Positions 10,146 to 29,176 of a DNA stretch of 36,030 nt are shown here, piece after piece (the stretch's first letter is position 1; each line of letters starts with the position of its first letter). Below the pieces are notes generated by a model. It ran no database searches and had not been told where the DNA came from. It was given only the letters and a program-made list of their open reading frames with translations. The stretch comes from a virus (Duplodnaviria > Heunggongvirae > Uroviricota > Caudoviricetes). The position numbers and the translations under genes were made by a program. The DNA lies in IMG/VR virus record IMGVR_UViG_3300042535_000037, positions 1-36,030 of that record; one strand, written 5' to 3'.

Positions 10146-10595
10146 ATGCGATTATTTACTGAAAAAGAACTTCGTTTAAAAGTTCAGCAGATGCTTGCTA
10201 CAAACAAAGGTGACTGCTCCATCACTGCTGAAGTTAAGAAGTACAGAGGAATCTCATATTCTCAGGTGTATGTACTTCAGCTTAATACGGAAGATGAACT
10301 CGCTTACTTCAATGTAATTTTCCAAATCAAAGACAAAAAAGTAGTCTCAATGATGGAAAAATACTGTGAATTTAACTATTCTATAGAGGTTGTTTCAAAT
10401 CCAGTTTGGACAACAGATAATGAATTGGCTCACAAGTCAATTGTAGAAGAAGCAGAAAATGATTTCTTTAAACAGCTAGATTTCATTATCTCCAAGCTTC
10501 TTGAGCGCAACACAAAAATTATGTTGACCCTCAGAAACTCACTCAAGAATACACAGGTAGACAACAAATATATACTCAAAATGCTAATGGAGTAA
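10146..10595 (+). CDS. Hypothetical protein (149 aa)
   Basis: TTTTATACATAAAA box upstream; ORF abuts pth2. Confidence 0.7.
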   Translation: MRLFTEKELRLKVQQMLATNKGDCSITAEVKKYRGISYSQVYVLQLNTEDELAYFNVIFQIKDKKVVSMMEKYCEFNYSIEVVSNPVWTTDNELAHKSIVEEAENDFFKQLDFIISKLLERNTKIMLTLRNSLKNTQVDNKYILKMLME

Positions 10596-17508: not shown

Positions 17509-18426
17509 ATGGCTGGAATTACAATTCCGCCACCTTCGGGTGGCATAAGTATACCAAATATCAACGGTGGATTCCAGAATCCACTTGCTCAGAAGAAGCA
17601 GGTGGACCCATTCAAGACCATCGAGGATATCTACACTGAAGACCAAGATAGAACCGTCAGAAAAGTACTCATATATGGACAAGAAGGGGTCGGAAAGACC
17701 CACTTCATGTACACAGCACCAAAACCTCTCTTCATCCTTGCCACTGAGGAACGAACCAAGCTCATCTTGCCAAAATTCGCCAACCTTGATAACAAGAATG
17801 ACATTGGAATAGTGCTTGTCAAATCCTATGATGATGTACTTCGCATGGCAGAGCTCGCAATTAAACGCCTCCAATCTGTCGAAAAAGAGAAAGGAGTCAT
17901 AGGCACAATTGCCATAGACTCAATCTCAACATTCAAAGACTACTGCATGATGAAACGTGCGGTAGAAAATGGATTCGATGGAAGAGACTTTGCTCAAATT
18001 AAATTCTCTCCACGCGATGACTACGGATTCATCAATGCCTATCACGATAAGGTAAGAGATACCATCATAGATAGTGGTTTCAACGTGATTGTAACTGCTA
18101 AGGAAAAGGCAAAATACAACACTACAGACCAATTCAAGATTGATGACTATCTTCCAGAAGGCAAAAATGACAATGCTCATGCATTCGATATCGTAATCAG
18201 AAACCTCATCAAAAATGGTGAGCCTTGGAGTGTCTTCAGAAAGACATCAATTGATGTTGGTATCGGTGGTCGGGAATATAGGATGATGGATTTCGCTGGA
18301 ATGTGTGTCAGTCTTGAAAATTTCAAGAAGAATCAACGTATGTTCACGTTCTCAGACTTCCAGAAACTCAAGAATGTAGAGGCTGCTAGAGAAGCAGCTA
18401 AAGAAAACTCAGAGGCAACTCAATGA
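17509..18426 (+). CDS. AAA_24/Sak4-like P-loop ATPase (putative recombination protein)
   Basis: KVLIYGQEGVGKT Walker A, IAIDSIS Walker B, VIVTA; position next to the SSB-like gene. Confidence 0.75.
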   Translation: MAGITIPPPSGGISIPNINGGFQNPLAQKKQVDPFKTIEDIYTEDQDRTVRKVLIYGQEGVGKTHFMYTAPKPLFILATEERTKLILPKFANLDNKNDIGIVLVKSYDDVLRMAELAIKRLQSVEKEKGVIGTIAIDSISTFKDYCMMKRAVENGFDGRDFAQIKFSPRDDYGFINAYHDKVRDTIIDSGFNVIVTAKEKAKYNTTDQFKIDDYLPEGKNDNAHAFDIVIRNLIKNGEPWSVFRKTSIDVGIGGREYRMMDFAGMCVSLENFKKNQRMFTFSDFQKLKNVEAAREAAKENSEATQ

Positions 18427-19415
18427 AACAGATGTGTATGGATTGCAGTAAGGAGATAGATTCACCTTCTACTGTAACTATTTGTGATTGCGGCTCCGCA
18501 AATGTGGTTCCCGTAGTCGGTAACGTTCAGACTCCAATCGTGAAAAATCCCACAAATAACATCGGATTCGTAGCATCAACCAAGAAAATCTACGAACTTC
18601 TGAAACTGTGCGGTCTTCAGAAAGGAGCAGGCAAGTTTGTCTTTGACAAATACGTTCTTATCGTGAAGCCTGATGGACTCGGAGTATCAGTTATCCAGCA
18701 GACACCAGATGGACAGTTCTACAACTATGGATACGTCAAGAAGTCCTACTTCAACGAATTATGGGGTAACGGCAACATGCCAATCAATGCAATTGAGACT
18801 ATCCCAGACGTTGACTATATGCGAAAGTTCGATAAATGCTACGTCAACTACGATAAAGATAAGGCTGTAGTTCAGGTCTACACAGGAAAAGAACACATCC
18901 TTTCTTCCAGAGCAGAGACAGCAGAAGCAATCATGACAGCCCGCTTCGAGCCTATCAACTTTGACCTTGCTAAGTTCGTACCACTTCCAAAATCAGGTGT
19001 CGTCTTTGACAACATCACATTCGATGTCCGTGTAGCAGACCTGCTCTCTATGGAAGAACTACTCAAGAGAAAGATAGACACAGGAAGCAAGAAGGACAAG
19101 GCTGTATTCTACCCATTCCTGCTCAACGATGAAGGCATATTCCTCTCAATGGGCGATGTAGACAACCCCATTACATCTTCTCTTCACGAAAAGATAGACA
19201 CAATCGAATACAAAAAGCCTGCATCTGCAATGCGTGTCATTGTAGGCGAAGTGCTCACCGATGTTCTCAAGAACCTCGATAAGAGTGCTATCATCCGAAT
19301 CCACGTCATTTCTCCTGAGAATCCAGTATGGGTCTCTACAGAAATCCTTGATGAAGGAAAGGATGTAGGAAGATTTGGATACATCATCTCTACCAAATCC
19401 GAAGAAGAAGAGTAG
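18423..19415 (+). CDS. Putative sliding clamp (PCNA-like) with N-terminal Zn ribbon
   Basis: CMDC...CDC N-terminus; PCNA-like C-terminal pattern VLTDVLKNLDK...IRIHV..PENPVWV....FGYIIS; RFC and PolB nearby. Confidence 0.5.
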   Translation: MKQMCMDCSKEIDSPSTVTICDCGSANVVPVVGNVQTPIVKNPTNNIGFVASTKKIYELLKLCGLQKGAGKFVFDKYVLIVKPDGLGVSVIQQTPDGQFYNYGYVKKSYFNELWGNGNMPINAIETIPDVDYMRKFDKCYVNYDKDKAVVQVYTGKEHILSSRAETAEAIMTARFEPINFDLAKFVPLPKSGVVFDNITFDVRVADLLSMEELLKRKIDTGSKKDKAVFYPFLLNDEGIFLSMGDVDNPITSSLHEKIDTIEYKKPASAMRVIVGEVLTDVLKNLDKSAIIRIHVISPENPVWVSTEILDEGKDVGRFGYIISTKSEEEE

Positions 19416-19430
19416 TCGGAAGACTATATC

Positions 19431-20513
19431 ATGGATGAAACTATTGCTTGGATGTTCCATGCTACACCTCGGTATGTCGGAAATCCCCGACAGACCCTTG
19501 TAGAAAGTGACTATGAAATCACTTCTTACATGGCAGCCAACAGTGGTTTCAACCCATGTTTCATAGGAGTATATCAACAAAACATCATAGACAAAGTATT
19601 TTTCGATATAGACTATGCCTCAATAGACGAAACCCTCAAGGTTTCACAAAAAATGTTTCAATATTGCAAAGACCTAGGAATTAAGCACGTCATCCCTAAC
19701 TGGTCAGGCTCTCGCGGTGCTCATATCTATCCTCTTTTCAAACCTGAAATTCACGATGACCCTGTATACTTACTCCGCAACTTTTCATATGGAGTAATCA
19801 ACGAAACAGGCACGTACTACATCGACAAGGGAAAGAAAGTTCCATATGCAGACACAAGAGTAATAGGCGACCTTCGTAGGCTCTGTCGCTACCCCAACAC
19901 TCAGCGAACTACAGATGGTGGAATTCCAAGAGGTTCCTACTGCATTCCACTCGACCCCGCTCGTTTCATGGACATGGACATCTCTGAAGTCCTAGACCTA
20001 GCCCGTACTCCACAACTCAACATAGAATATGATTTTTCAGTACCTACTAACTCTCTCAAGAGTGTAGCCACTTTCCACGTAGACTACTCAGAATTCAAGT
20101 CATCCAATTTCATTGAAATCGAAGAAGAAATAACAGCAGACTCTCCACATACTGAAACTGGAAAAGCAAGAGCTCTCATGAAAAACATCATCAAACGCCC
20201 TTGCATCTCAAAGTACATCTGCACGAACAACCCACCTGATATGATGAGGGTAGCAGCAGTTATCGAACTTCAGAAACTTGGATACAAGCCAAACTTTATA
20301 TACAACAGACTTGCATCTCTCAACTGGCATGACTTCGACCCCGATGTAACCAAGTATCAAATCTCATCTATATACAAAAAAGGACTTACACCAATCTCTA
20401 AAATGTCCATCAATAATGCCGGATTATGCTTCAATCCAGAAATCAAATGTGGTGAATGCATTCGAAGCCATAGAGAAATTCCAAAAATTCCAAAAAAACA
20501 GGTGATACTATGA
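19431..20513 (+). CDS. Archaeo-eukaryotic primase PriS fused to a PriL/PriX-like C-terminal domain
   Basis: FFDID (DxD), SGSRGAHIY, DLRRLCRYPNT; C-terminal RPCI...RVAAV.EL..LG....DFDPDVTKYQI..I...GLC...C. Confidence 0.8.
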   Translation: MDETIAWMFHATPRYVGNPRQTLVESDYEITSYMAANSGFNPCFIGVYQQNIIDKVFFDIDYASIDETLKVSQKMFQYCKDLGIKHVIPNWSGSRGAHIYPLFKPEIHDDPVYLLRNFSYGVINETGTYYIDKGKKVPYADTRVIGDLRRLCRYPNTQRTTDGGIPRGSYCIPLDPARFMDMDISEVLDLARTPQLNIEYDFSVPTNSLKSVATFHVDYSEFKSSNFIEIEEEITADSPHTETGKARALMKNIIKRPCISKYICTNNPPDMMRVAAVIELQKLGYKPNFIYNRLASLNWHDFDPDVTKYQISSIYKKGLTPISKMSINNAGLCFNPEIKCGECIRSHREIPKIPKKQVIL

Positions 20514-21241
20514 ACCTTGATGTGAAAATAGACTTCCGCGAAAAGAACTCTCAAGTGAATCGTGCATCAATGATGAAAAATTATATCCTTGAACAGAACA
20601 ATGTAGAAATTTTCAAGAATAAAGGAGTAGTTTTCAATCCCACTATAGAATCCCTTCCAGTAGGCGATGTCATCTGTGGAAATGTAGCTGTAGAAATCAA
20701 GATGACTCCCTCGGACCTTATTTCATCTTCTAAAGACGAGCGTCTAAAGAATCAAGTAGAAAACATGTGTGCTAATTTCGAGCATGTCTATCTTATCCTT
20801 ATGTTTTCAGGCTCAGACCTCAGAACACATTGCTCCACTTCTAGAATTCCACCAGAAATGGTACTTGGTCTACTTGCTTCTGTAGAGACTAGAAACAAAG
20901 TTCACGTCAAAAAATACGTAGGTTTCAAAGAAGGCGAAGGTCTCAAAATGGTAATGGATGACCTTCTCAGAATTTTCCCAAAAGCCAACGATGGAAAAGA
21001 AACTGCTATCAATCACAACCCTCAACGTATCCAAGCCTCAACCTCTGACGAGCAAATCAGAGTCCTCACAGGATACCCCATGATTTCTTATGACCGCGCA
21101 AAGAACCTACTTCTCCACTTCGGAACCCTCGACTCTATCTTCCGAGCTTCCGAAAAAGACCTTCTGCAAGTAGACGGAATAGGCAAGAAAATCGCACAAA
21201 AGTTCATAGAAGTCAACCAAAAGCTTTATAACTCTTCATAA
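20510..21241 (+). CDS. ERCC4/XPF-family structure-specific nuclease with HhH2 domain
   Basis: IDFRE, LPVGDV, VEIKMTPSD (ERKxxxD-like); C-terminal AKNLLLHFGTL..I..AS..DL.QVDGIGKKIA. Confidence 0.88.
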   Translation: MNLDVKIDFREKNSQVNRASMMKNYILEQNNVEIFKNKGVVFNPTIESLPVGDVICGNVAVEIKMTPSDLISSSKDERLKNQVENMCANFEHVYLILMFSGSDLRTHCSTSRIPPEMVLGLLASVETRNKVHVKKYVGFKEGEGLKMVMDDLLRIFPKANDGKETAINHNPQRIQASTSDEQIRVLTGYPMISYDRAKNLLLHFGTLDSIFRASEKDLLQVDGIGKKIAQKFIEVNQKLYNSS

Positions 21242-21253
21242 CTTTTTCTCACT

Positions 21254-21691
21254 ATGAAAACATACACTGTAGAAATCATAGACCTGAAGCAAGACTTCGG
21301 TATGGGAATGCCTGATGTCAAAGACATAGAAGCAGCAGACAATAACAGCGCAAGAACCAAAGCCCGTAGAATGCTCTCTAATCAAGGTCTAGTAGAAGGA
21401 AAGGACTACAAAATCACTTCAGTCAAACTCTCCGAACTCGATAAAGATGAAAAGCTGAGATACGTTCTTTTTATTCTGGAAAATAATCATGTTGACGCAA
21501 ATATGATTGACTACTACAATGGAAAGAAAAAGGCAAAACCAAACATGAAAGGGCTTGAGGGAATTCCTCAGTCAGTATGGATAAAAGCCTTTGACATAGC
21601 CAAGAAAAAAGGCAAAATAAGTGTAAAGGTATCCAACGGTGCTGGCAATCATCCAGACTATATTTCCTACAGAGAATATATGAAAAGATAA
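21254..21691 (+). CDS. Hypothetical protein (145 aa); N-terminal domain resembles 29553-29753
   Basis: ORF with a TATA-like box upstream; shares an A.DN..AR......G....DYKI..K motif. Confidence 0.7.
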   Translation: MKTYTVEIIDLKQDFGMGMPDVKDIEAADNNSARTKARRMLSNQGLVEGKDYKITSVKLSELDKDEKLRYVLFILENNHVDANMIDYYNGKKKAKPNMKGLEGIPQSVWIKAFDIAKKKGKISVKVSNGAGNHPDYISYREYMKR

Positions 21692-21758
21692 TCACGACAA
21701 AAATCATACAATTTTGTCGCTATTAAATTTTTTATTTTTTTATTTTTACCAATATCTT

Positions 21759-21766
21759 TTTATATA
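21759..21766 (+). promoter_or_regulatory. TATA box of tnpB
   Basis: TTTATATA ending 20 nt before the GTG start; fits a leaderless archaeal transcript. Confidence 0.65.
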
Positions 21767-21786
21767 TTAAATTCCATTATACTACT

Positions 21787-22926
21787 GTGGCAAAGAAAGA
21801 CGATGGAATAGTAAGAATCGGATACAAGTACCGAGCTTACCCCACCCCTGAACAAAAAGTCTTAATCGACCAGCAGTTCGGAGCTTGTCGCTACGTCTAC
21901 AACTTCGCACTACGCCTCAAACAAAAGGCATACAAGTACGCAAGGGTCAGCCTCGATATCACAAAAGATATCAGACCCCTACTTACCCACATGAAAAAAG
22001 AAGATAAGTGGGAGTGGCTTGCAGATGCCGAATCTCAATCACTATATGAGGCATATCGTAACTTAGAGAACGCTTACGATAGGTTCTTTGACCCTGAATT
22101 AAAAGCAGGGTTCCCACAGTTCAAAACCAAGAAGAATCCTAAGCAGTCGTTCCAAATAACCAACGGTGCAGTGATACCCAATTTTGATGCAGGTTACGTG
22201 CGTATACCCAAGATAGGCAATATACCTATACGTGTCCACAAAGACTTCGTAGGAACTCCAAAGACCGTTACAGTGTCAAGGAAGCCAAGTGGCAAGTACT
22301 ATATCTCAATTCTTAACGAGACAGGAAAGCTATATCCTGAGACTCAATCCTATGAGCCTCACTCAACCCTTGGCATTGACCTTGGACTAAAGAACTTTGC
22401 AGCCCTTTCAACAGGTGAGCTTATACCCAACTCTCACTTTAAAAAGGATTCAGAGCCACGAATCAAGTGCCTACAGCGCAGACTATCCCATAAGAAGATA
22501 GGTTCTGCCAACTTCAAGAAAGCCAAGCTCAAGCTTGCTCGCCTTGAAGAACACATTTCCAATCAACGCTCCTACTTCCACCACAACCTGAGTGCTCGAT
22601 TAGTTAGCGAAAACCAAGCTATTATAGTCGAAAACCTCAATGTTGCTGGTATGCTGAAGAATCCTAAACTTGCAAAATCAATAGCAGACGTAGGATGGAG
22701 TACATTTATTAACCAATTAGAATATAAATCCAAATTACAGGGCAAATATTTCAATAAGGTAGGTAGGTTCTTCCCATCATCGAAGCTATGCTCCGAATGT
22801 GGATACAAGCTACCTTCACTATCCCTTGACATCAGAGAGTGGACTTGCCCTGTCTGTAACACAACTCACGATAGAGACTTCAATGCCTCTATTAATATCA
22901 GAAACACGGCTGTTCAAGTCGGATGA
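21787..22926 (+). CDS. tnpB: TnpB (IS200/IS605 family) RNA-guided nuclease, CRISPR-associated (Cas12-like intermediate candidate)
   Basis: N-terminal YKYRAYPTPEQ...FGACRYVYN; RuvC-I GIDLG, RuvC-II VENLNV, Zn finger CSEC...CPVC, RuvC-III HDRDFNA; all three acidic catalytic residues present. Confidence 0.95.
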   Translation: MAKKDDGIVRIGYKYRAYPTPEQKVLIDQQFGACRYVYNFALRLKQKAYKYARVSLDITKDIRPLLTHMKKEDKWEWLADAESQSLYEAYRNLENAYDRFFDPELKAGFPQFKTKKNPKQSFQITNGAVIPNFDAGYVRIPKIGNIPIRVHKDFVGTPKTVTVSRKPSGKYYISILNETGKLYPETQSYEPHSTLGIDLGLKNFAALSTGELIPNSHFKKDSEPRIKCLQRRLSHKKIGSANFKKAKLKLARLEEHISNQRSYFHHNLSARLVSENQAIIVENLNVAGMLKNPKLAKSIADVGWSTFINQLEYKSKLQGKYFNKVGRFFPSSKLCSECGYKLPSLSLDIREWTCPVCNTTHDRDFNASINIRNTAVQVG

Positions 22927-23030
22927 GCCTACCGAGAGGTCTCACACATCCCATAGGGATAGAGACTCGATGAAGTAGGAAGTAACTTACCCCGAACTCG
23001 CTCGTCAGCGACAACGCTATCAGCTACAGG
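22927..23030 (+). ncRNA. Putative omegaRNA/tracrRNA-like scaffold (may begin inside the tnpB 3' end)
   Basis: Long hairpin 22928-22979 (CCTAC/GTAGG, CGA/TCG, GTCTC/GAGAC, ATCCC/GGGAT) carrying the IS605 right-end-like motif TCGATGAAGTAGGAAG; second hairpin TCGCT/AGCGA at 22998-23011; no TATA box. Confidence 0.65.
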
Positions 23031-23431
23031 GTTAACGACTAAGGTCAGTGACAAGTTGCATTGAAACACAGAAGAAAGTAATGTGGCAGAAGTACCAATT
23101 CTGGTTAACGACTAAGGTCAGTGACAAGTTGCATTGAAACGCAAGAAAAACTCCCATAGATGCAAAAATGGTAGCCTAGTTAACGACTAAGGTCAGTGAC
23201 AAGTTACATTGAAACGAAACCAAACGGTTGACGTGGTAATTATTAGATACTGTCAATGACAAAGTTCAGTGATTTGTTGCATTAAAACTAATCAAGTCCA
23301 AATATAGTGCGATGGCTATTTGTGTCAACAACAAAGTTCGTTGATAAGTTACATTGAAACTGAGACAAGGATACCTCAAAAGGTGTGATGACAAATCAAC
23401 GGCAAAGTTTAGTGATTTGTTGTATTGAAAC
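23031..23431 (+). CRISPR. CRISPR mini-array: 6 repeats of 37 nt and 5 spacers of 36, 38, 36, 35 and 34 nt
   Basis: Repeats at 23031-23067, 23104-23140, 23179-23215, 23252-23288, 23324-23360 and 23395-23431; consensus GTTAACGACTAAGGTCAGTGACAAGTTGCATTGAAAC; R1=R2, R3 has 1 mismatch, R4-R6 are degenerate. Confidence 0.97.
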
Positions 23432-23517
23432 ACGAAAAATTCTTGTATTTTTTCTATAAACAAATATATAAATACAAGAATCATAACGCTTATATACTTA
23501 TATTTCAATGATAAAGT

Positions 23518-23640
23518 ATGACCAAGACTAAAAAGCAAAAAGTATTCAAGGATTATATAGGCGTGGATTTTGAAGAATTTTTACGTTTAGCTTTAATTGC
23601 AAGTATAATAATTTTAACTATAGATATAATGTTATTATGA
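23518..23640 (+). CDS. Small (40 aa) basic-N/C-terminal-TM protein, below the ORF-track cutoff
   Basis: CTTATATA at 23489-23496; translates MTKTKKQKVFKDYIGVDFEEFLRLALIASIIILTIDIMLL*. Confidence 0.5.
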   Translation: MTKTKKQKVFKDYIGVDFEEFLRLALIASIIILTIDIMLL

Positions 23641-23646
23641 GGAAAT

Positions 23647-23970
23647 ATGGAAAATAAAAATAAAAGATATTTAATAACATTTATATTAGCAATAATTTTA
23701 TATTTAGTTAAATCATTGATATTTAATATATTTTTTGTTTTAGCTATATCTTACGTTATATATATTTTCTTAAATAGTGAAATAAAAAATGATGAACAAA
23801 AATTTTCAAAGGTTAATCGTACACTTGAATTGGTATTTATTATTCTTGGTGTATATTTAGTATGGATTTCATTGGTGGATAAAAATAGTATTTATAACAT
23901 CAGTGGAACCTATGTAAATGGTAAAATAGACTTAGTGATAGAAAAAGCTGCTTCCATTCTAAGCTTCTAA
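23647..23970 (+). CDS. AT-rich small membrane protein (107 aa)
   Basis: Three hydrophobic segments; markedly AT-rich DNA. Confidence 0.6.
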   Translation: MENKNKRYLITFILAIILYLVKSLIFNIFFVLAISYVIYIFLNSEIKNDEQKFSKVNRTLELVFIILGVYLVWISLVDKNSIYNISGTYVNGKIDLVIEKAASILSF

Positions 23971-24027
23971 TCCATTACCTTTTTATACATAAAAACCTAT
24001 AATCTACCAATTGAATGAGGTCACTAA

Positions 24028-25074
24028 ATGGACATTTTAGATACAATTGAATTTACGGCTCCTGAAGGAGCAGTTGTAGAAACCGTCACACCGATAGATA
24101 CTGCTTTGTGGTTCGAAAAATATAGACCAAAAAAGCTTGATGATGTGATAGGTCAGGAAGACGTTGTGAAAATTGCGAAATCAAATATTCTAGCAGGCAA
24201 CGTCACAAACTACATATTTGCGGGAGAATCCGGTATAGGAAAGACCACTATTGCTGTCTGTATGGCAAGAGAACTTTTCGGAGACAACTACCGTATTGCA
24301 TTCACAGAATATAACGCATCTGATGACAGAGGCATCAACTTTATTCGTGAAGATATCAAATCCATTGCTTCTAAGAATGCAGGTATGGGAGTCAAGCTGA
24401 GAATTATTCTTCTGGATGAATCCGACCAACTCACTGATGACGCACAGAACGCTCTCAGGCGTATCATAGAGCAATATTCTGCTTACGCTCGCTTCATATT
24501 CACCTGTAACAACAGTTCCCGCATCATAGATGCAATCAAATCAAGATGTACCATGATACGTTTTTCACGTATGAGCGATGAAAACATTTCAAAAATAATT
24601 GAGTACATTGCATTCAATGAGGGTCTCACTATTGCACCGGAAGCCTACCAAGTCTTGATAGACCATGCTGAAGGCGACAACCGTAAGGTCATCAACCTTC
24701 TCCAAAACATAGCGGTAGTCACAAAAGACATCAATGCTTCTACTGCACAGCGTTTCGCCAAGGTTCCAGACAGAGTACTCCTGAAGCAAATCCTAACTAC
24801 AGCCTTTTCAGGTGAATTCGTGAAAGCCCGCCAAACCATGCTCGACACGTACATCAACAACGGTTTTGATGCACTGGATATAATCAAGGCTTGCTACAAG
24901 GTGCTCCCTGAGATGGTAGACGGAATTCCACTCATGAAATCCATGAGTCTCCTTGGAGAAATAGAGCACAGGCTCAATGCTGGCGATAACCCACACATCC
25001 AGCTAAACGCAATGCTCGCGCAACTCGCTCTCATCCAACTGATTCCGGCATCATGCACAGCGATGAGAACCTGA
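24028..25074 (+). CDS. rfcS: Replication factor C small subunit
   Basis: WFEKYRP, GESGIGKT, NASDDRGI, LDESDQLTDDAQNALRR, SRC. Confidence 0.95.
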   Translation: MDILDTIEFTAPEGAVVETVTPIDTALWFEKYRPKKLDDVIGQEDVVKIAKSNILAGNVTNYIFAGESGIGKTTIAVCMARELFGDNYRIAFTEYNASDDRGINFIREDIKSIASKNAGMGVKLRIILLDESDQLTDDAQNALRRIIEQYSAYARFIFTCNNSSRIIDAIKSRCTMIRFSRMSDENISKIIEYIAFNEGLTIAPEAYQVLIDHAEGDNRKVINLLQNIAVVTKDINASTAQRFAKVPDRVLLKQILTTAFSGEFVKARQTMLDTYINNGFDALDIIKACYKVLPEMVDGIPLMKSMSLLGEIEHRLNAGDNPHIQLNAMLAQLALIQLIPASCTAMRT

Positions 25075-25328
25075 TGTTCTATGTGTATATCCTTGACTGC
25101 GGAAAATCCGTATACACAGGACATACACAAGACCTTCTTGTACGATGGCAACAGCATAAGAGCGGAAAGGGTGCTAAATTCACAAAGTTGAATCCACCCA
25201 AATCCCTCTTATACTATGAAATCTATCCTACTAGAAGTGAAGCGATGAAACGCGAAATTTTCATCAAGAAACTAACAAGGAAGCAAAAGCTGGAATTATG
25301 TCAAAATCAGAAACCGAAGAACAACTAG
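25074..25328 (+). CDS. Standalone GIY-YIG nuclease (UPF0213/YhbQ-like)
   Basis: MFYVYILDC..SVYTGHTQDL..RWQQH.SGKGAKFT...EAMKRE..IKKL; TGATG overlap with the rfcS stop. Confidence 0.88.
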   Translation: MFYVYILDCGKSVYTGHTQDLLVRWQQHKSGKGAKFTKLNPPKSLLYYEIYPTRSEAMKREIFIKKLTRKQKLELCQNQKPKNN

Positions 25329-25486
25329 CACACAGAATCTACAAATCGTGGTGCGTTGGTCTTCTCAAAGAAGATGATATCACAAATGACCAGCTAATAC
25401 TACTCTACAGACATTATCCATTCATATTTACTCCATATCAGAAATTTCTCATGAAAAGGTGGCTACAAGAAAATGGCATCCGATGA
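25298..25486 (+). CDS. Small hypothetical protein (62 aa)
   Basis: Fills the gap and overlaps both neighbours in operon fashion. Confidence 0.55.
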   Translation: MSKSETEEQLAHRIYKSWCVGLLKEDDITNDQLILLYRHYPFIFTPYQKFLMKRWLQENGIR

Positions 25487-26366
25487 AATGGCAAAAGAAG
25501 ACCTAATGGTATTTTCACCAACATCCCTAACCGTGTATCAAAAATGTCCAAGAAAATACTACTTGGCGAAGATAGCGAAGGCGAAACCTCTCCCAAAAGA
25601 CAAGACAGGTGCAGAGTTTGGAAAATGTGGTCACTCCATTCTTGAAAAATTCGAAAGCAACTTTAACATAGATGAACTTATAGCCGTCAACGATGTATCC
25701 CGCTACTTTCATGCCCTGCTTGAAAAAATGATAAGCGAAAATTGGGATTTCAAAATACAGAATCAATGGAACACCAACGATAAATTGAAAAATGAAATGA
25801 AGGAAATCCTCAACGTATACATAGAAGACAGAATTGTTGTTTTCAACGAAAGAGCAGCACAGAACAAACTTGATACATACTTCCCTATTGCTGTAGAAGA
25901 AGATATTCGTTCTGAAAAATTCAACATCAGATGCATTATCGACAAACATAACGCCAACCATACCCTTCTCGACTACAAGTTCTCCAAGTACTTCCCCGAA
26001 ATTCTGCTCAAGCAATATTCTGCTCTTACTCCTACAGAAAAAGCCGAATATGACAAGACCAAACTTCAATACGAAATACAAGCCCTGATGAACGCCCTTG
26101 TAGTATACGACAAGTACAATGTACTTCCAGCAAAGATGACTTTCTTCTTCCCTCGATTCATGAAGTCTGCTCATCATGGAATATACGTAGTGGAAATCAC
26201 ACAACAACGTATCAATTGGATTGCCAATCTCATCAATCAAGCAGCAGAGAAAGTAAGAAGCAATAATTTCCAGAAAACTGAAGATAAATCCGTATGTGCA
26301 GAATATGGTGGTTGCGAATACATGCACTACTGCGACTTCTCTGAAATATGTATCATGAGCCTGTAA
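25473..26366 (+). CDS. Cas4/AddB-like PD-(D/E)xK nuclease with four-Cys Fe-S motif
   Basis: SPTSL..YQKCPRKYY, G..GH..LE, IIDK, DYK, YEIQ, C-terminal CAEYGGCEYMHYC. Confidence 0.85.
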   Translation: MASDEMAKEDLMVFSPTSLTVYQKCPRKYYLAKIAKAKPLPKDKTGAEFGKCGHSILEKFESNFNIDELIAVNDVSRYFHALLEKMISENWDFKIQNQWNTNDKLKNEMKEILNVYIEDRIVVFNERAAQNKLDTYFPIAVEEDIRSEKFNIRCIIDKHNANHTLLDYKFSKYFPEILLKQYSALTPTEKAEYDKTKLQYEIQALMNALVVYDKYNVLPAKMTFFFPRFMKSAHHGIYVVEITQQRINWIANLINQAAEKVRSNNFQKTEDKSVCAEYGGCEYMHYCDFSEICIMSL

Positions 26367-29176
26367 TCATGCTTCCACAGAACATTCTCTCCAACATCAG
26401 AAATTTCGCTACTCAAAACGCGAAACCAAAAGAAGAGGAATTCGAATATGTGTTTCCTACTTCATTAGAATATGAGGAAACAGAAGGAGTAGCCACCATA
26501 AAAATGTTTGGGCGTTCTCTTGATGGTAGACGTGTCCAGAAAATCATCACTGGATTCATGCCATATTTCTATGCACCTCTGGACCTTACTTTTCGAGAAG
26601 ATGTTCATTCCGGCATCCACAAAATAGAACGTGCTCAACCTGACGGCTCAAGGTTTTTCGCCATAGACAACTCAGCAGTCATGAAAGTGATAGCAACTAA
26701 ACCTTCTATCATTGGTGGAAAATCCGAAAAAATAAACTACTTGAGAGACCTCTTCACTCATTCTTTCGAAGCAGATATCCCCTACGTAGACAGAGCTCGT
26801 ATAGACTTAGGTCTCAATGATTTCGTTCGCGTTCCAAAATCCAATATATTTTCATATACTCAAATTCAACATCCCACTGAAGAAGAACTTAAATTAGAAA
26901 AATCCAAATATCCAAAATTCAGCTTGAGAATTCAGATAGCTGATATTGAAAACCTAGATGACAAATCAATCAAGGATGCGAAAAAAGGTCTCTCAAAAGT
27001 GGTATGCCTAACCGTATACGACAATTATGATAAAACATACCATGTCTTCACATGCTTATTTCTTTCAGATATGCAGAAGGAAATAGTAAGAGAAAAACTT
27101 CGTAATCACTGGAAAGATTCACAGAAATATAGCTCCGAATCTGAATACAATATTGAATACAATATCACCGAAGGAGAAACCGAAGAAGAAGCAGAAAAAA
27201 ACATGTTCGAAGCCTATAAAGTTTGGACCCGTCAAAACTATCCTGATATCCTAGCAGGCTGGAACTTCAAGGAATACGATATTCCTGTAGAGCTTTGTAG
27301 AGCCGGAAACCTTGGAGTAGAAATCAATTCCTTTTCCGAAGTCAACAAGGTTTCAAAATACTTCAACCAAGAAACACTATCCGACTCCTTTAAAATTCGC
27401 GGTCTCCTAGTACTAGACCTAATGAGTATGTATGACAAGATTCAGCCCAAGGCTCTTCGTTTTACTAACCTCAATCATATCTCCAACATAGAACTCGGAA
27501 CTCAGAAAATAGGTAGAGAATCAATCATCCAGCTTGTACACACCGATATACCACATCTCATCGCCTATAACATAATAGATGTCCAACTCACTAAACTCAT
27601 AGAAGAAAAAGCCCACCTGATTGAATTCTTCAGTATGCTTTCTTTCAAATCCTTCACAGAGATAGGAACCACATCAAACTCTCAGTTCATCGATAAGCTT
27701 CTCCTGAAATTCGTGCATGGTCGTTTCTGCGTTCCAACTAAAGTCAAATTAGAAAAAGATGAAGATGAAGATGATGACTTTATAGGTGGAAAAGTGTACG
27801 ATTCCACAGCAGGACTTCACGAATATATCATAGTTCTCGACTATTCAGGTCTGTATCCCTCTATTATGCGTTCCCTGAATATCTCTATCGAAACTAAAGA
27901 CCCTAACGGTGAAATCCTTGCGGCTAATGGAATCCGTTTCCGCAAATCCCCTCGCGGTGTAGTTCCATCCATTCTTGAAATGCTTCTAGATGAAAGAAAT
28001 CACTATAAGAAACTTGAAAAAGAAGCAAAGAAAGCTAGAGATGATGAACTGGAACACATCTACAACATGAAACAAATCTCCGTGAAAATCCTGATGAATG
28101 CATTCTTCGGAGTTTTGGGATGGGTAGACTTCAGGCTCAACGACATAGACACTGCTGAAGCAATCACATCCACAGGACAAGACCTCTCAATGAACACCAA
28201 GACCTACGTTGAATCTATGGGCTTCCAGTGCATCTACGGAGACACAGACAGCCTATTCATACGTCTGGGAAGAGAAGTCACTCCTGAAGAAGCTAGAGAC
28301 ATTGCAAAAGACCTCTGCTCCAAAATCAACGCCTTCCTTGGAGACTTCGCTAAGGAACGCTACGGCATAGACTCTCATTTCTTCAACATCGAGTTTGACA
28401 AGTTTGCAAAAACCCTCTTCCAACCCATTAAGAAATCTACAAAGGCAGGAGAAGCAGAAACAGGAGCAAAGAAGCGTTACGCTGGCTACTTCTACAACTA
28501 CGACAAGCAAGAATATGAATTCAAGGCTCAGGGTTTTGAACTCAAGAGAGCATCCTCTTCTCTTCTAACTCAAGAGTTCCAAGAGACCCTTCTACGCATG
28601 ATTCTCAATAAAACATCAGACAGAGAAATCAAAAAATTCTATACAGAAACAAAGGAAAAACTCTATTCAGGTGGAGTAGACCAACAGAAAATAGGTCTCC
28701 GCTACAACATCAAAAAAGATATAGTAGACTTCTCTCTTAATCCAGACCTAGTAGGCAATACTAATTTCATGGCTAAATCCAAGGGTCTCACAGGAACTCT
28801 CAACGCCAACTATATCCTCGGAAGAAAATACGGCATAGGAGACAAGGTAATGCTCTACTTCCTAGACAAATCCAAATCTCTAGCAGGTGTAGATATGCTC
28901 TGTCTCGACTACGAAGAAGAGATACCTTCTGAATTCACCATCAGCTACGACCAATGTTGGGAATCCTTCATCAGAGACCCTACAGAAAGCGTACTGAAAG
29001 CCTACGGCATATCCTTCGAGTACATTGAAACTGGTCTCAAAACCAACAATACCATGAATGTAGTCATTGAAGGAGTAGAAGTCAAACAAACCCAACTCAA
29101 GCAAGCCATCGAAAAACCAAAAAAGATTAAATTAAATACAAAAGAAAATAGAATAAGACTATTTGAAAATGAGTAA
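26348..29176 (+). CDS. polB: Family B DNA polymerase with 3'-5' exonuclease (start may be 26369)
   Basis: ExoI ADIE, ExoII GWNFKEYD, ExoIII YNIID; DYSGLYPS, KILMNAFFG, YGDTDSLF; no intein apparent. Confidence 0.95.
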   Translation: MYHEPVIMLPQNILSNIRNFATQNAKPKEEEFEYVFPTSLEYEETEGVATIKMFGRSLDGRRVQKIITGFMPYFYAPLDLTFREDVHSGIHKIERAQPDGSRFFAIDNSAVMKVIATKPSIIGGKSEKINYLRDLFTHSFEADIPYVDRARIDLGLNDFVRVPKSNIFSYTQIQHPTEEELKLEKSKYPKFSLRIQIADIENLDDKSIKDAKKGLSKVVCLTVYDNYDKTYHVFTCLFLSDMQKEIVREKLRNHWKDSQKYSSESEYNIEYNITEGETEEEAEKNMFEAYKVWTRQNYPDILAGWNFKEYDIPVELCRAGNLGVEINSFSEVNKVSKYFNQETLSDSFKIRGLLVLDLMSMYDKIQPKALRFTNLNHISNIELGTQKIGRESIIQLVHTDIPHLIAYNIIDVQLTKLIEEKAHLIEFFSMLSFKSFTEIGTTSNSQFIDKLLLKFVHGRFCVPTKVKLEKDEDEDDDFIGGKVYDSTAGLHEYIIVLDYSGLYPSIMRSLNISIETKDPNGEILAANGIRFRKSPRGVVPSILEMLLDERNHYKKLEKEAKKARDDELEHIYNMKQISVKILMNAFFGVLGWVDFRLNDIDTAEAITSTGQDLSMNTKTYVESMGFQCIYGDTDSLFIRLGREVTPEEARDIAKDLCSKINAFLGDFAKERYGIDSHFFNIEFDKFAKTLFQPIKKSTKAGEAETGAKKRYAGYFYNYDKQEYEFKAQGFELKRASSSLLTQEFQETLLRMILNKTSDREIKKFYTETKEKLYSGGVDQQKIGLRYNIKKDIVDFSLNPDLVGNTNFMAKSKGLTGTLNANYILGRKYGIGDKVMLYFLDKSKSLAGVDMLCLDYEEEIPSEFTISYDQCWESFIRDPTESVLKAYGISFEYIETGLKTNNTMNVVIEGVEVKQTQLKQAIEKPKKIKLNTKENRIRLFENE

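Follow-up and report, generated by a model that had tools for sequence, protein, structure and literature searches.

We analysed a 36,030-nt stretch of viral DNA, hereafter the window, which forms the first 36 kb of IMG/VR record IMGVR_UViG_3300042535_000037, and concentrated on a locus at which a tnpB gene of the kind carried by IS200/IS605 insertion sequences (IS) is closely followed by a CRISPR array. The source record, which is rated complete, comprises 183,084 bp and is bounded by direct terminal repeats of 127 bp, and the array was reproduced in Logan contigs from the probable source run. A look for RNA runs containing this stretch gave none. The named relatives of the window TnpB (best identity 52%) come from the Methanosarcinales (Methanohalophilus, Methanosarcina, Methanolobus and Methanococcoides), and the carrier is best explained as a large virus of Methanosarcinales-like, methane-producing archaea. 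The features of the locus are as follows.

21749-21786, + strand: virus-type leaderless promoter with a TATA box ~30 nt before the GTG start codon, occupying the place of the IS left end
21787-22926, + strand: tnpB, GTG start, 379 aa, with the RuvC D/E/D triad and the CxxC...CxxC zinc finger both intact, present once
22891-22990, + strand: diverged omegaRNA core
22991-23030, + strand: GC-rich linker, 40 nt
23031-23067, 23104-23140, 23179-23215, 23252-23288, 23324-23360 and 23395-23431, + strand: repeats R1 to R6, 37 nt each, period 71-75 nt
23031-23215, + strand: younger part of the array, with nearly identical R1-R3, ending ATTGAAAC, and spacers S1 (36 nt) and S2 (38 nt)
23216-23431, + strand: older part of the array, with spacers S3-S5 (36, 35 and 34 nt) and R4-R6
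23439-23481, + strand: 12-bp inverted repeat and T6 run just after R6, read directly from the sequence

The protein encoded by tnpB matched the Pfam families HTH_OrfB_IS605, OrfB_IS605 and Cas12f1-like_TNB above their cut-offs, and in an alignment with 23 relatives the residues of the RuvC triad (D198, E282 and D364) and of the zinc finger (C335, C338, C354 and C357) all fell in invariant columns. The closest solved structure was that of ISDra2 TnpB (E 1e-68 over residues 13-376), whereas the match to LaTranC was far weaker and covered the C-terminal part only (4e-34), and that to Cas12f was weaker still (1e-4). An earlier reading of the locus made from its letters and open reading frames without database searches (the sequence-only reading) had described a 379-aa TnpB with the triad, the zinc finger and its own TATA box, and had regarded it as a canonical IS605 protein and not as an expanded Cas12f; the Pfam matches, the invariant columns, the position of the promoter and the structural comparison bear this out and support the assignment of the predicted protein to the canonical ISDra2-like TnpBs.

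To characterise the RNA component, a covariance model was built from the omegaRNAs of 34 relatives; it consists of a hairpin (P1), a covarying long-range helix (P3) around P2 and a terminal hairpin (P4), and ends with the 8-nt tail UAGUUCAC before the guide. The core at 22891-22990 was the only significant match to this model in 21000-24500, and its score (22.3 bits, E 6.7e-5) compares with 95-120 bits for the omegaRNAs of the relatives. In the window omegaRNA, P1 lies inside the end of the open reading frame and the long-range P3 encloses an enlarged P2, followed by an AUGAAG..GGAAG motif; the minimum free energy (MFE) fold recovers P1, P2 and P3, and the folding energy of 22900-23067 is overall unexceptional (z -0.46). 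No nucleotide of the window locus was aligned to the right-end hairpin P4, and the 8-nt tail of the model was aligned to 22983-22990.

Beyond this core, the linker has a GC content of 60%, compared with about 38% for the spacers and the virus, and may serve the omegaRNA as its fixed native guide, be a P4-like hairpin in a displaced position or take the place of a leader. Neither the virus nor a set of 177 Methanosarcinaceae genomes yielded a target for it. That the segment is what remains of a host-type leader was considered and rejected, because it is not AT-rich and is unlike the A-rich leader ends of host arrays. We also note that the linker can form small alternative hairpins (TCGCT/AGCGA and AGCG/CGCT) closed by CCC/GGG, and that it could therefore be the displaced equivalent of the lost terminal hairpin and not a guide.

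Many relatives of the window gene are full IS200/IS605 elements, which possess either a divergent IS200-type tnpA, called from its N-terminus as read by eye in the DNA, or a recognisable left-end hairpin, and have their own promoter. The window locus resembles the ISDra2-type IS200/IS605 systems (PDB 8H1J and 8EXA) in the full-length similarity of the protein, its three Pfam domains, RuvC triad and zinc finger and in the overlap of the omegaRNA core with the 3' end of the gene, but differs from them in having no TnpA, no left end and no P4, in its viral leaderless promoter and single copy, and in the CRISPR array behind it. The left end of ordinary family members, with L118 as query, had no match in the window, and tnpB is present once in the 183-kb genome. 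Consistent with the sequence-only reading, which had noted the absence of transposase and adaptation genes beside tnpB, no Y1 TnpA, Cas1, Cas2 or Cas6 gene was found in the whole genome with Pfam models (other class 1 genes were not searched), and by the same Cas models the array, which stands next to the tnpB gene, has no link to another CRISPR-Cas type. The TATA cassette of the promoter ends in CTACT and precedes, with equal spacing, also the viral genes at 10146 and 24028 (repeat family D2). Because there is no left end, no right-end hairpin and no TnpA, and because the gene is present in a single copy behind a viral promoter, the window tnpB is shown, on these sequence features, to be immobilised, both transposon ends being gone and a viral promoter apparently in use.

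We next considered whether the gene is maintained. Contigs of 151 nt that are 95-97% identical to tnpB at 22026-22334 were present in two runs labelled freshwater metagenome, and therefore a sister virus exists; it is known from these 151-nt fragments alone, and its depth is too low to show an array. All five of the listed differences between these fragments and tnpB are synonymous third-position changes, which shows, at the level of codon changes, that tnpB is under purifying selection. In the tree of relatives, the window protein forms a very long branch (1.43 substitutions per site) in a polytomy. The picture that emerges is of an immobilised, fast-evolved and yet selected gene that appears to be expressed as a viral gene.

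The array begins close behind this gene: the tnpB stop codon ends at 22926 and R1 begins at 23031, which confirms the 104-nt distance and the six 37-nt repeats of the sequence-only reading. It is the sole spaced-repeat array of the 183,084-bp genome, and its five spacers (34-38 nt) are mutually unrelated. Whereas R1-R3 hardly differ from one another, the identity to R1 is 65-69% for R4-R6 (over a 48-nt span), which share states at repeat positions 3, 10, 14 and 22. Because these states are shared, R4-R6 represent an older repeat generation and not random decay; and because the younger of the two generations lies beside tnpB, the array grew at its tnpB-proximal end. The earlier placement of the growing end next to tnpB therefore stands, but its description of the distal repeats as decayed needs to be amended, since they are not simply degenerate. 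No leader or promoter was recognised between tnpB and R1, and the inverted repeat and T6 run just after R6 are likely to be the transcript end, a candidate terminator, of a unit comprising tnpB, omegaRNA and array. The simplest reading of this layout is that tnpB, the omegaRNA core, the linker and the array would form one transcript.

The array has the format of class 1 systems. In 97 of the 177 Methanosarcinaceae genomes, arrays were found with 37-nt repeats, a period of 72-74 nt, a 5' GTT/GTC/ATT and a 3' ATTGAAAC; the window repeat, with its 37 nt, 71-75 nt period, 5' GTT/GTC and 3' ATTGAAAC, has the format of those host arrays, and ATTGAAAC ends five of the six window repeats. In archaeal type I and type III systems, Cas6 leaves an 8-nt ATTGAAAC/G handle on the CRISPR RNAs (crRNAs). 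In the older repeats, mismatches to R1 affect 1 of 24 positions in the 8-nt 3' handle (4%) compared with 25 of 87 in the repeat body (29%; Fisher p 0.013), and the handle is therefore selectively conserved.

The repeat does not resemble the omegaRNA. No similarity was found between the window repeat and the omegaRNA 3' end (gapped alignment, p 0.85), and the omegaRNA 3' end as a degenerate 'repeat 0' was rejected, the in-register identity being 8 of 37 by hand count and the gapped p 0.85. Because a repeat born from the omegaRNA would need no ATTGAAAC end, and because the similarity to the omegaRNA is lacking, an origin of the array de novo from the omegaRNA is not supported. A conserved internal omegaRNA motif of the relatives (..CAAGGGAUGAAAC..) resembles by eye the sequence with which class 1 repeats of the Methanosarcinaceae end (..CAAGGAUUGAAAC), a likeness that may be due to chance.

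Based on these features, the reading that we prefer, tentatively and at somewhat less than an even chance, is that host class 1 machinery reads the array and that TnpB is guided separately. The host Cas1-Cas2 integrase would insert the spacers, its ruler setting the 37/36-nt format, and pre-crRNA would arise by read-through of tnpB transcription. Cutting 8 nt from each repeat end would yield the universal class 1 handle AUUGAAAC, and the resulting crRNAs would be used by host type I or type III complexes, probably against competing viruses. TnpB would act apart from them, with its own omegaRNA and a fixed guide from 22991 on, such that one transcript would carry two RNA-guided modules and the spacers would not be read by TnpB. 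Host readers are suggested by default because of the class 1 format and the conserved handle, and polar, integrase-driven growth fits because the younger of two repeat generations lies beside tnpB; some coupling to TnpB is nevertheless suggested by the juxtaposition, the domestication of the gene and the missing hairpin. Host readers are also favoured by the absence of cas1, cas2 and cas6 from the genome, by a repeat unlike the omegaRNA 3' end and by the outcome of the unbiased duplex test described below. That viruses carry arrays which make use of the CRISPR machinery of their hosts is well established (PMC11656645).

The retention of the handle while the repeat bodies drift would also suit a different use of the array, as an RNA decoy (an RNA anti-CRISPR) whose handle-bearing repeat units soak up host Cas6 or effector subunits and guide nothing. 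Virus-borne repeat units that act as dominant-negative crRNA mimics have been described (PMC11656645). However, a decoy needs neither regular, unique spacers of 34-38 nt nor polar growth, and the repeat body matches no known host repeat; we regard this explanation as highly improbable.

Several observations weigh against host class 1 readers. Known viral mini-arrays have repeats identical to those of the host (PMC11656645), whereas the first 29 nt of the window repeat showed no significant similarity to Methanosarcinaceae repeats. Searches for the repeat gave single chance matches only, and no array, in 392 genomes of the host class (at most 3 mismatches in 22 nt) and in 185,579 species representatives, and nothing in IMG/VR, with exact and degenerate searches. 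Likewise, no protospacers were found in the virus itself or the fetched loci, none above chance in INPHARED phages, none in IMG/VR (exact matches only, to a 24-mer taken from S1 and a 26-mer taken from S2) and none in the 177 Methanosarcinaceae genomes (BLAST with the whole array and linker). Archaeal metagenome-assembled genomes often come without their arrays, which limits these array and protospacer searches, and the host may be unsampled, with which a mechanism copied from the host would be compatible despite the lack of a matching host repeat. Further, the 40 nt ahead of R1 are unlike host leaders, and two independent modules would leave unexplained, as a coincidence, that the sole array lies 104 nt behind the sole tnpB, co-oriented and promoterless. 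Finally, the omegaRNA has lost exactly the guide-adjacent hairpin, and a 7-8 bp helix with the repeat, followed by an 8-nt tail, could replace this hairpin in position.

The orphan repeat and the absence of targets would be expected if the two parts were neighbours by history only, that is, if an IS605 element had landed beside, or come with, an old orphan or 'neo-CRISPR' array that has no reader. TnpB may then have been kept for another role with a fixed guide, and the array may be slowly decaying. A repeat family found nowhere else, the degeneracy of half of the repeats, the failure to find spacer targets or a recognisable leader, and the chance neighbours expected when very many windows are scanned are all consistent with such a history. 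On the other hand, the near-identity of R1-R3 and the conserved handle argue for recent activity or selection, purifying selection acts on tnpB, and the precise, co-oriented and promoterless placement after the omegaRNA core is improbable by chance in a 183-kb genome; we therefore consider historical adjacency quite unlikely, if clearly less so than a decoy.

The most substantial alternative to host readers is a nascent type V system, similar to TranC and formed by array capture, in which the immobilised TnpB itself reads the array and the omegaRNA core (22891-22990) serves as trans-activating CRISPR RNA (tracrRNA). We consider this possible but doubtful. GUAACUU (22982-22988) would pair with AAGUUGC or AAGUUAC in each repeat and thereby replace the lost hairpin of the right end, the final 8 nt of each repeat would be the guide-adjacent tail, and the spacers would come from host Cas1-Cas2 in trans. 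The loss of both transposon ends, the viral promoter that drives the gene and the purifying selection on tnpB are in keeping with this proposal, as is the array itself, which is downstream and co-oriented, begins 104 nt past the stop codon and is separated from it by the omegaRNA core only, with no leader. A downstream layout is that of nearly all Cas12-array associations (PMC10691335), and in TranC loci the zone searched for the tracrRNA spans 100-200 nt (bioRxiv 10.64898/2026.03.27.714800). TnpB was, moreover, the sole RNA-guided effector candidate that turned up in the virus, in targeted searches and not a full annotation.

Direct evidence for such pairing is mixed. Both the MFE and the centroid fold of 22900-23067 contain a long-range helix in which GUAACUU, just past the conserved GGAAG, pairs with AAGUUGC of R1. 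The paired segment corresponds to repeat positions 24-30 and leaves an 8-nt tail before the spacer, as in the geometry of P4 and tail in the family model. A position-restricted test of a 7-8 bp helix at the P4 site gave p ~0.03, albeit framed only after the helix had been seen, and a G-to-A change in R3 and R5 improves the pairing by turning a wobble pair into a Watson-Crick pair. However, the helix is 7 bp long, and only 5 bp in R4 and R6, and in the global, unbiased test the duplex of omegaRNA and repeat was no better than that with shuffled repeats (p ~0.6); for comparison, anti-repeats in the related array-bearing clade described below reach -18 to -30 kcal/mol and exceed the shuffles in three of four loci. 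Similarly, when both strands of 21600-23700 were scanned for anti-repeats, with 60 kb of the genome as background, no plausible tracrRNA site emerged, the top-0.1% duplexes of that scan lying solely in the tnpB coding region (RuvC-I motif) and antisense to the linker.

Other results also speak against a TnpB-read array. At its tail, the repeat has the class 1 handle (ATTGAAAC), which differs from both the family tail UAGUUCAC and the tail aligned in the window itself, and the protospacer searches yielded nothing from which a transposon- or protospacer-adjacent motif (TAM/PAM) could be read. The association is a singleton: an array downstream of tnpB was found in none of the ~170 fetched relatives, and conserved association, for which PMC10691335 asks that two or more protein clusters within a clade share it, was not found for the window locus. 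The claim of an independent and very early type V origin is thus not borne out, given the class 1 format and handle, a repeat that is not derived from the omegaRNA, a negative unbiased anti-repeat test and the lack of a conserved association. In its fullest form, in which a 379-aa ISDra2-like TnpB without REC/WED expansion has turned CRISPR effector by exchanging P4 for pairing with the repeat while host Cas1-Cas2 extends a class 1-format array in trans, the proposal is in our view unlikely. Overall, neither of the two leading models displays all of the features by which it would itself be recognised.

A group of relatives nevertheless indicates that this TnpB family is able to run omegaRNA-derived arrays of the same 37-nt format, which favours the type V proposal. 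These TnpBs, which are 49-52% identical to the window TnpB and mostly lie on virus-like contigs, form a clade with 99% SH-aLRT (Shimodaira-Hasegawa-like approximate likelihood ratio test) support (L010, L011, L019, L020, L021/L100, L022, L099, L101, L103 and the truncated L012). Directly upstream of tnpB, they have a second omegaRNA-like gene and, behind it, between one and four repeats of 37 nt whose spacers (~35 nt) are unique, at the following positions.

L010, 4580-5000: upstream array locus
L020, 2649-3000: upstream array locus
L021, 2552-3000: upstream array locus
L022, 2204-2490: upstream array locus
L019, 270-520: upstream array locus
L099, 268-480: upstream array locus
L011, 4760-5000: upstream array locus
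L101, 1-236: upstream array locus
L103, 2105-2271: upstream array locus

The upstream copies match the family omegaRNA model with scores of 21-29 bits. In both of the alignments shown, the match stops where the first repeat ends, and the sister repeat therefore represents the 3' arm of an enlarged P4 together with the tail. In L010, L019 and L099, the left end of ordinary copies was found further upstream, which places the array within the transposon, behind the tnpB promoter and ahead of tnpB. The spacers vary among sister elements with the same repeat. The last guide of L101 (213-236) is the reverse complement of the region of the tnpB ribosome-binding site and start codon in L012, L103 and L099, and could target competing copies or be an antisense regulator. 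Upstream arrays have been described as rare for Cas12 and TnpB (PMC10691335).

Membership of the window TnpB in this upstream-array clade was considered and rejected, since the 99% support is for the clade without the window protein, whose long branch lies in the polytomy, and the association of the window locus with an array therefore arose independently. For the phylogenetic placement and the homologous loci that the sequence-only reading had proposed to inspect, the outcome is accordingly divided: by similarity the protein is ISDra2-like, but in the tree it is a long branch outside the array-bearing clade; and arrays were indeed found with homologous genes, but as omegaRNA-derived arrays upstream of tnpB in the sister clade and not downstream.

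We then compared the locus with known systems. TnpB-array associations and virus-borne class 1 arrays are both already known. Forty V-U groups of TnpB-array association, including the V-U6-45 intermediates, have been published (PMC10691335), as have the TranC intermediates (summarised in PMC13565253), and a phage-borne 414-aa CauTranC9 without domain expansion has been described (bioRxiv 10.64898/2026.03.27.714800). The window locus shares with type V-U*/TranC systems a TnpB-sized effector without REC/WED expansion, a short downstream array, 36-38 nt repeats, the absence of cas1 and cas2 and carriage by a virus. It differs from them in having no convincing tracrRNA or anti-repeat, in the class 1 handle and in an association that is not conserved in a second cluster. 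The window protein is much nearer to ISDra2 TnpB than to LaTranC (PDB 9JFO), and with 379 aa it would be a smaller effector than those of the TranC9 clade (~414 aa).

Similar to the mini-arrays of the Saccharolobus viruses SPV1 and SPV2 (PMC11656645), the window array is an orphan array of an archaeal virus, without cas genes and with class 1-type repeat termini and spacer lengths. Mini-arrays of the SPV1/SPV2 type, however, have one or two spacers directed against related viruses and host-identical repeats (PMC11656645), whereas the window array has five spacers in two repeat generations, an orphan repeat, no targets found and the 3' region of tnpB in place of a leader. With the omegaRNA arrays and omegaRNA-derived arrays (PMC10691335; Sigma-TnpB and V-U40-43) and with the sister clade, the locus has in common the TnpB family (49-52% identity), the 37-nt repeat and the period of ~73 nt. 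The sister-clade repeat demonstrably stems from an omegaRNA paralogue, whose 3' arm and tail it forms, has a strong anti-repeat and lies upstream of tnpB inside an intact transposon, whereas in the window the array is downstream, its sequence is unrelated to the omegaRNA and the element is immobile. What is new is the combination of a TnpB of 379 aa, canonical and immobilised and carried by an archaeal virus, with a class 1-format, orphan-repeat array in apparently one transcription unit.

For the evolution of Cas12 from TnpB, two routes are under discussion, namely growth of an array from the omegaRNA and settling of a transposon beside an existing array (PMC10691335). The sister clade appears to represent the first route, in transposons whose left end is still recognisable, and the window may represent the second at its earliest stage, such that the two loci form a matched pair for the switch from one flank-derived guide to many. 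If TnpB does read the array, it would be a very small multi-guide nuclease, below even the smallest of the TranC clades named in one preprint (~414 aa; bioRxiv 10.64898/2026.03.27.714800). If it does not, the virus would still be unusual in packaging a transposon-derived nuclease together with a host-dependent array on seemingly one transcript. Having no adaptation genes of its own, the virus would have to borrow the enzymes of its host.

The tnpB-array locus lies within a replication module, between an ERCC4/XPF-like nuclease on one side and a clamp loader similar to replication factor C (RFC) on the other, beyond which are a GIY-YIG protein, a PD-(D/E)XK nuclease and a family B polymerase.

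20510-21241: ERCC4/XPF-like nuclease with helix-hairpin-helix motifs
24028-25074: RFC-like clamp loader
25053-25328: small GIY-YIG protein
25473-26366, + strand: PD-(D/E)XK nuclease (PF12705), located downstream of the array at a distance of 2 kb; its match to Cas4 (13.6 bits) is weak and below threshold
26348-29176: family B DNA polymerase

Scans of the window against Rfam and for tRNAs gave no matches. No relatives were found when they were looked for with the 360-aa neighbour, and the RFC-like neighbour has solely distant relatives (at most 38% identity). Interference with CRISPR adaptation is known for some Cas4 homologues of viruses (PMC11656645). As a whole, 17509-29176 of the window can be described as a replication and repair module, which also includes an AAA_24 ATPase and is interrupted by the tnpB-array unit.

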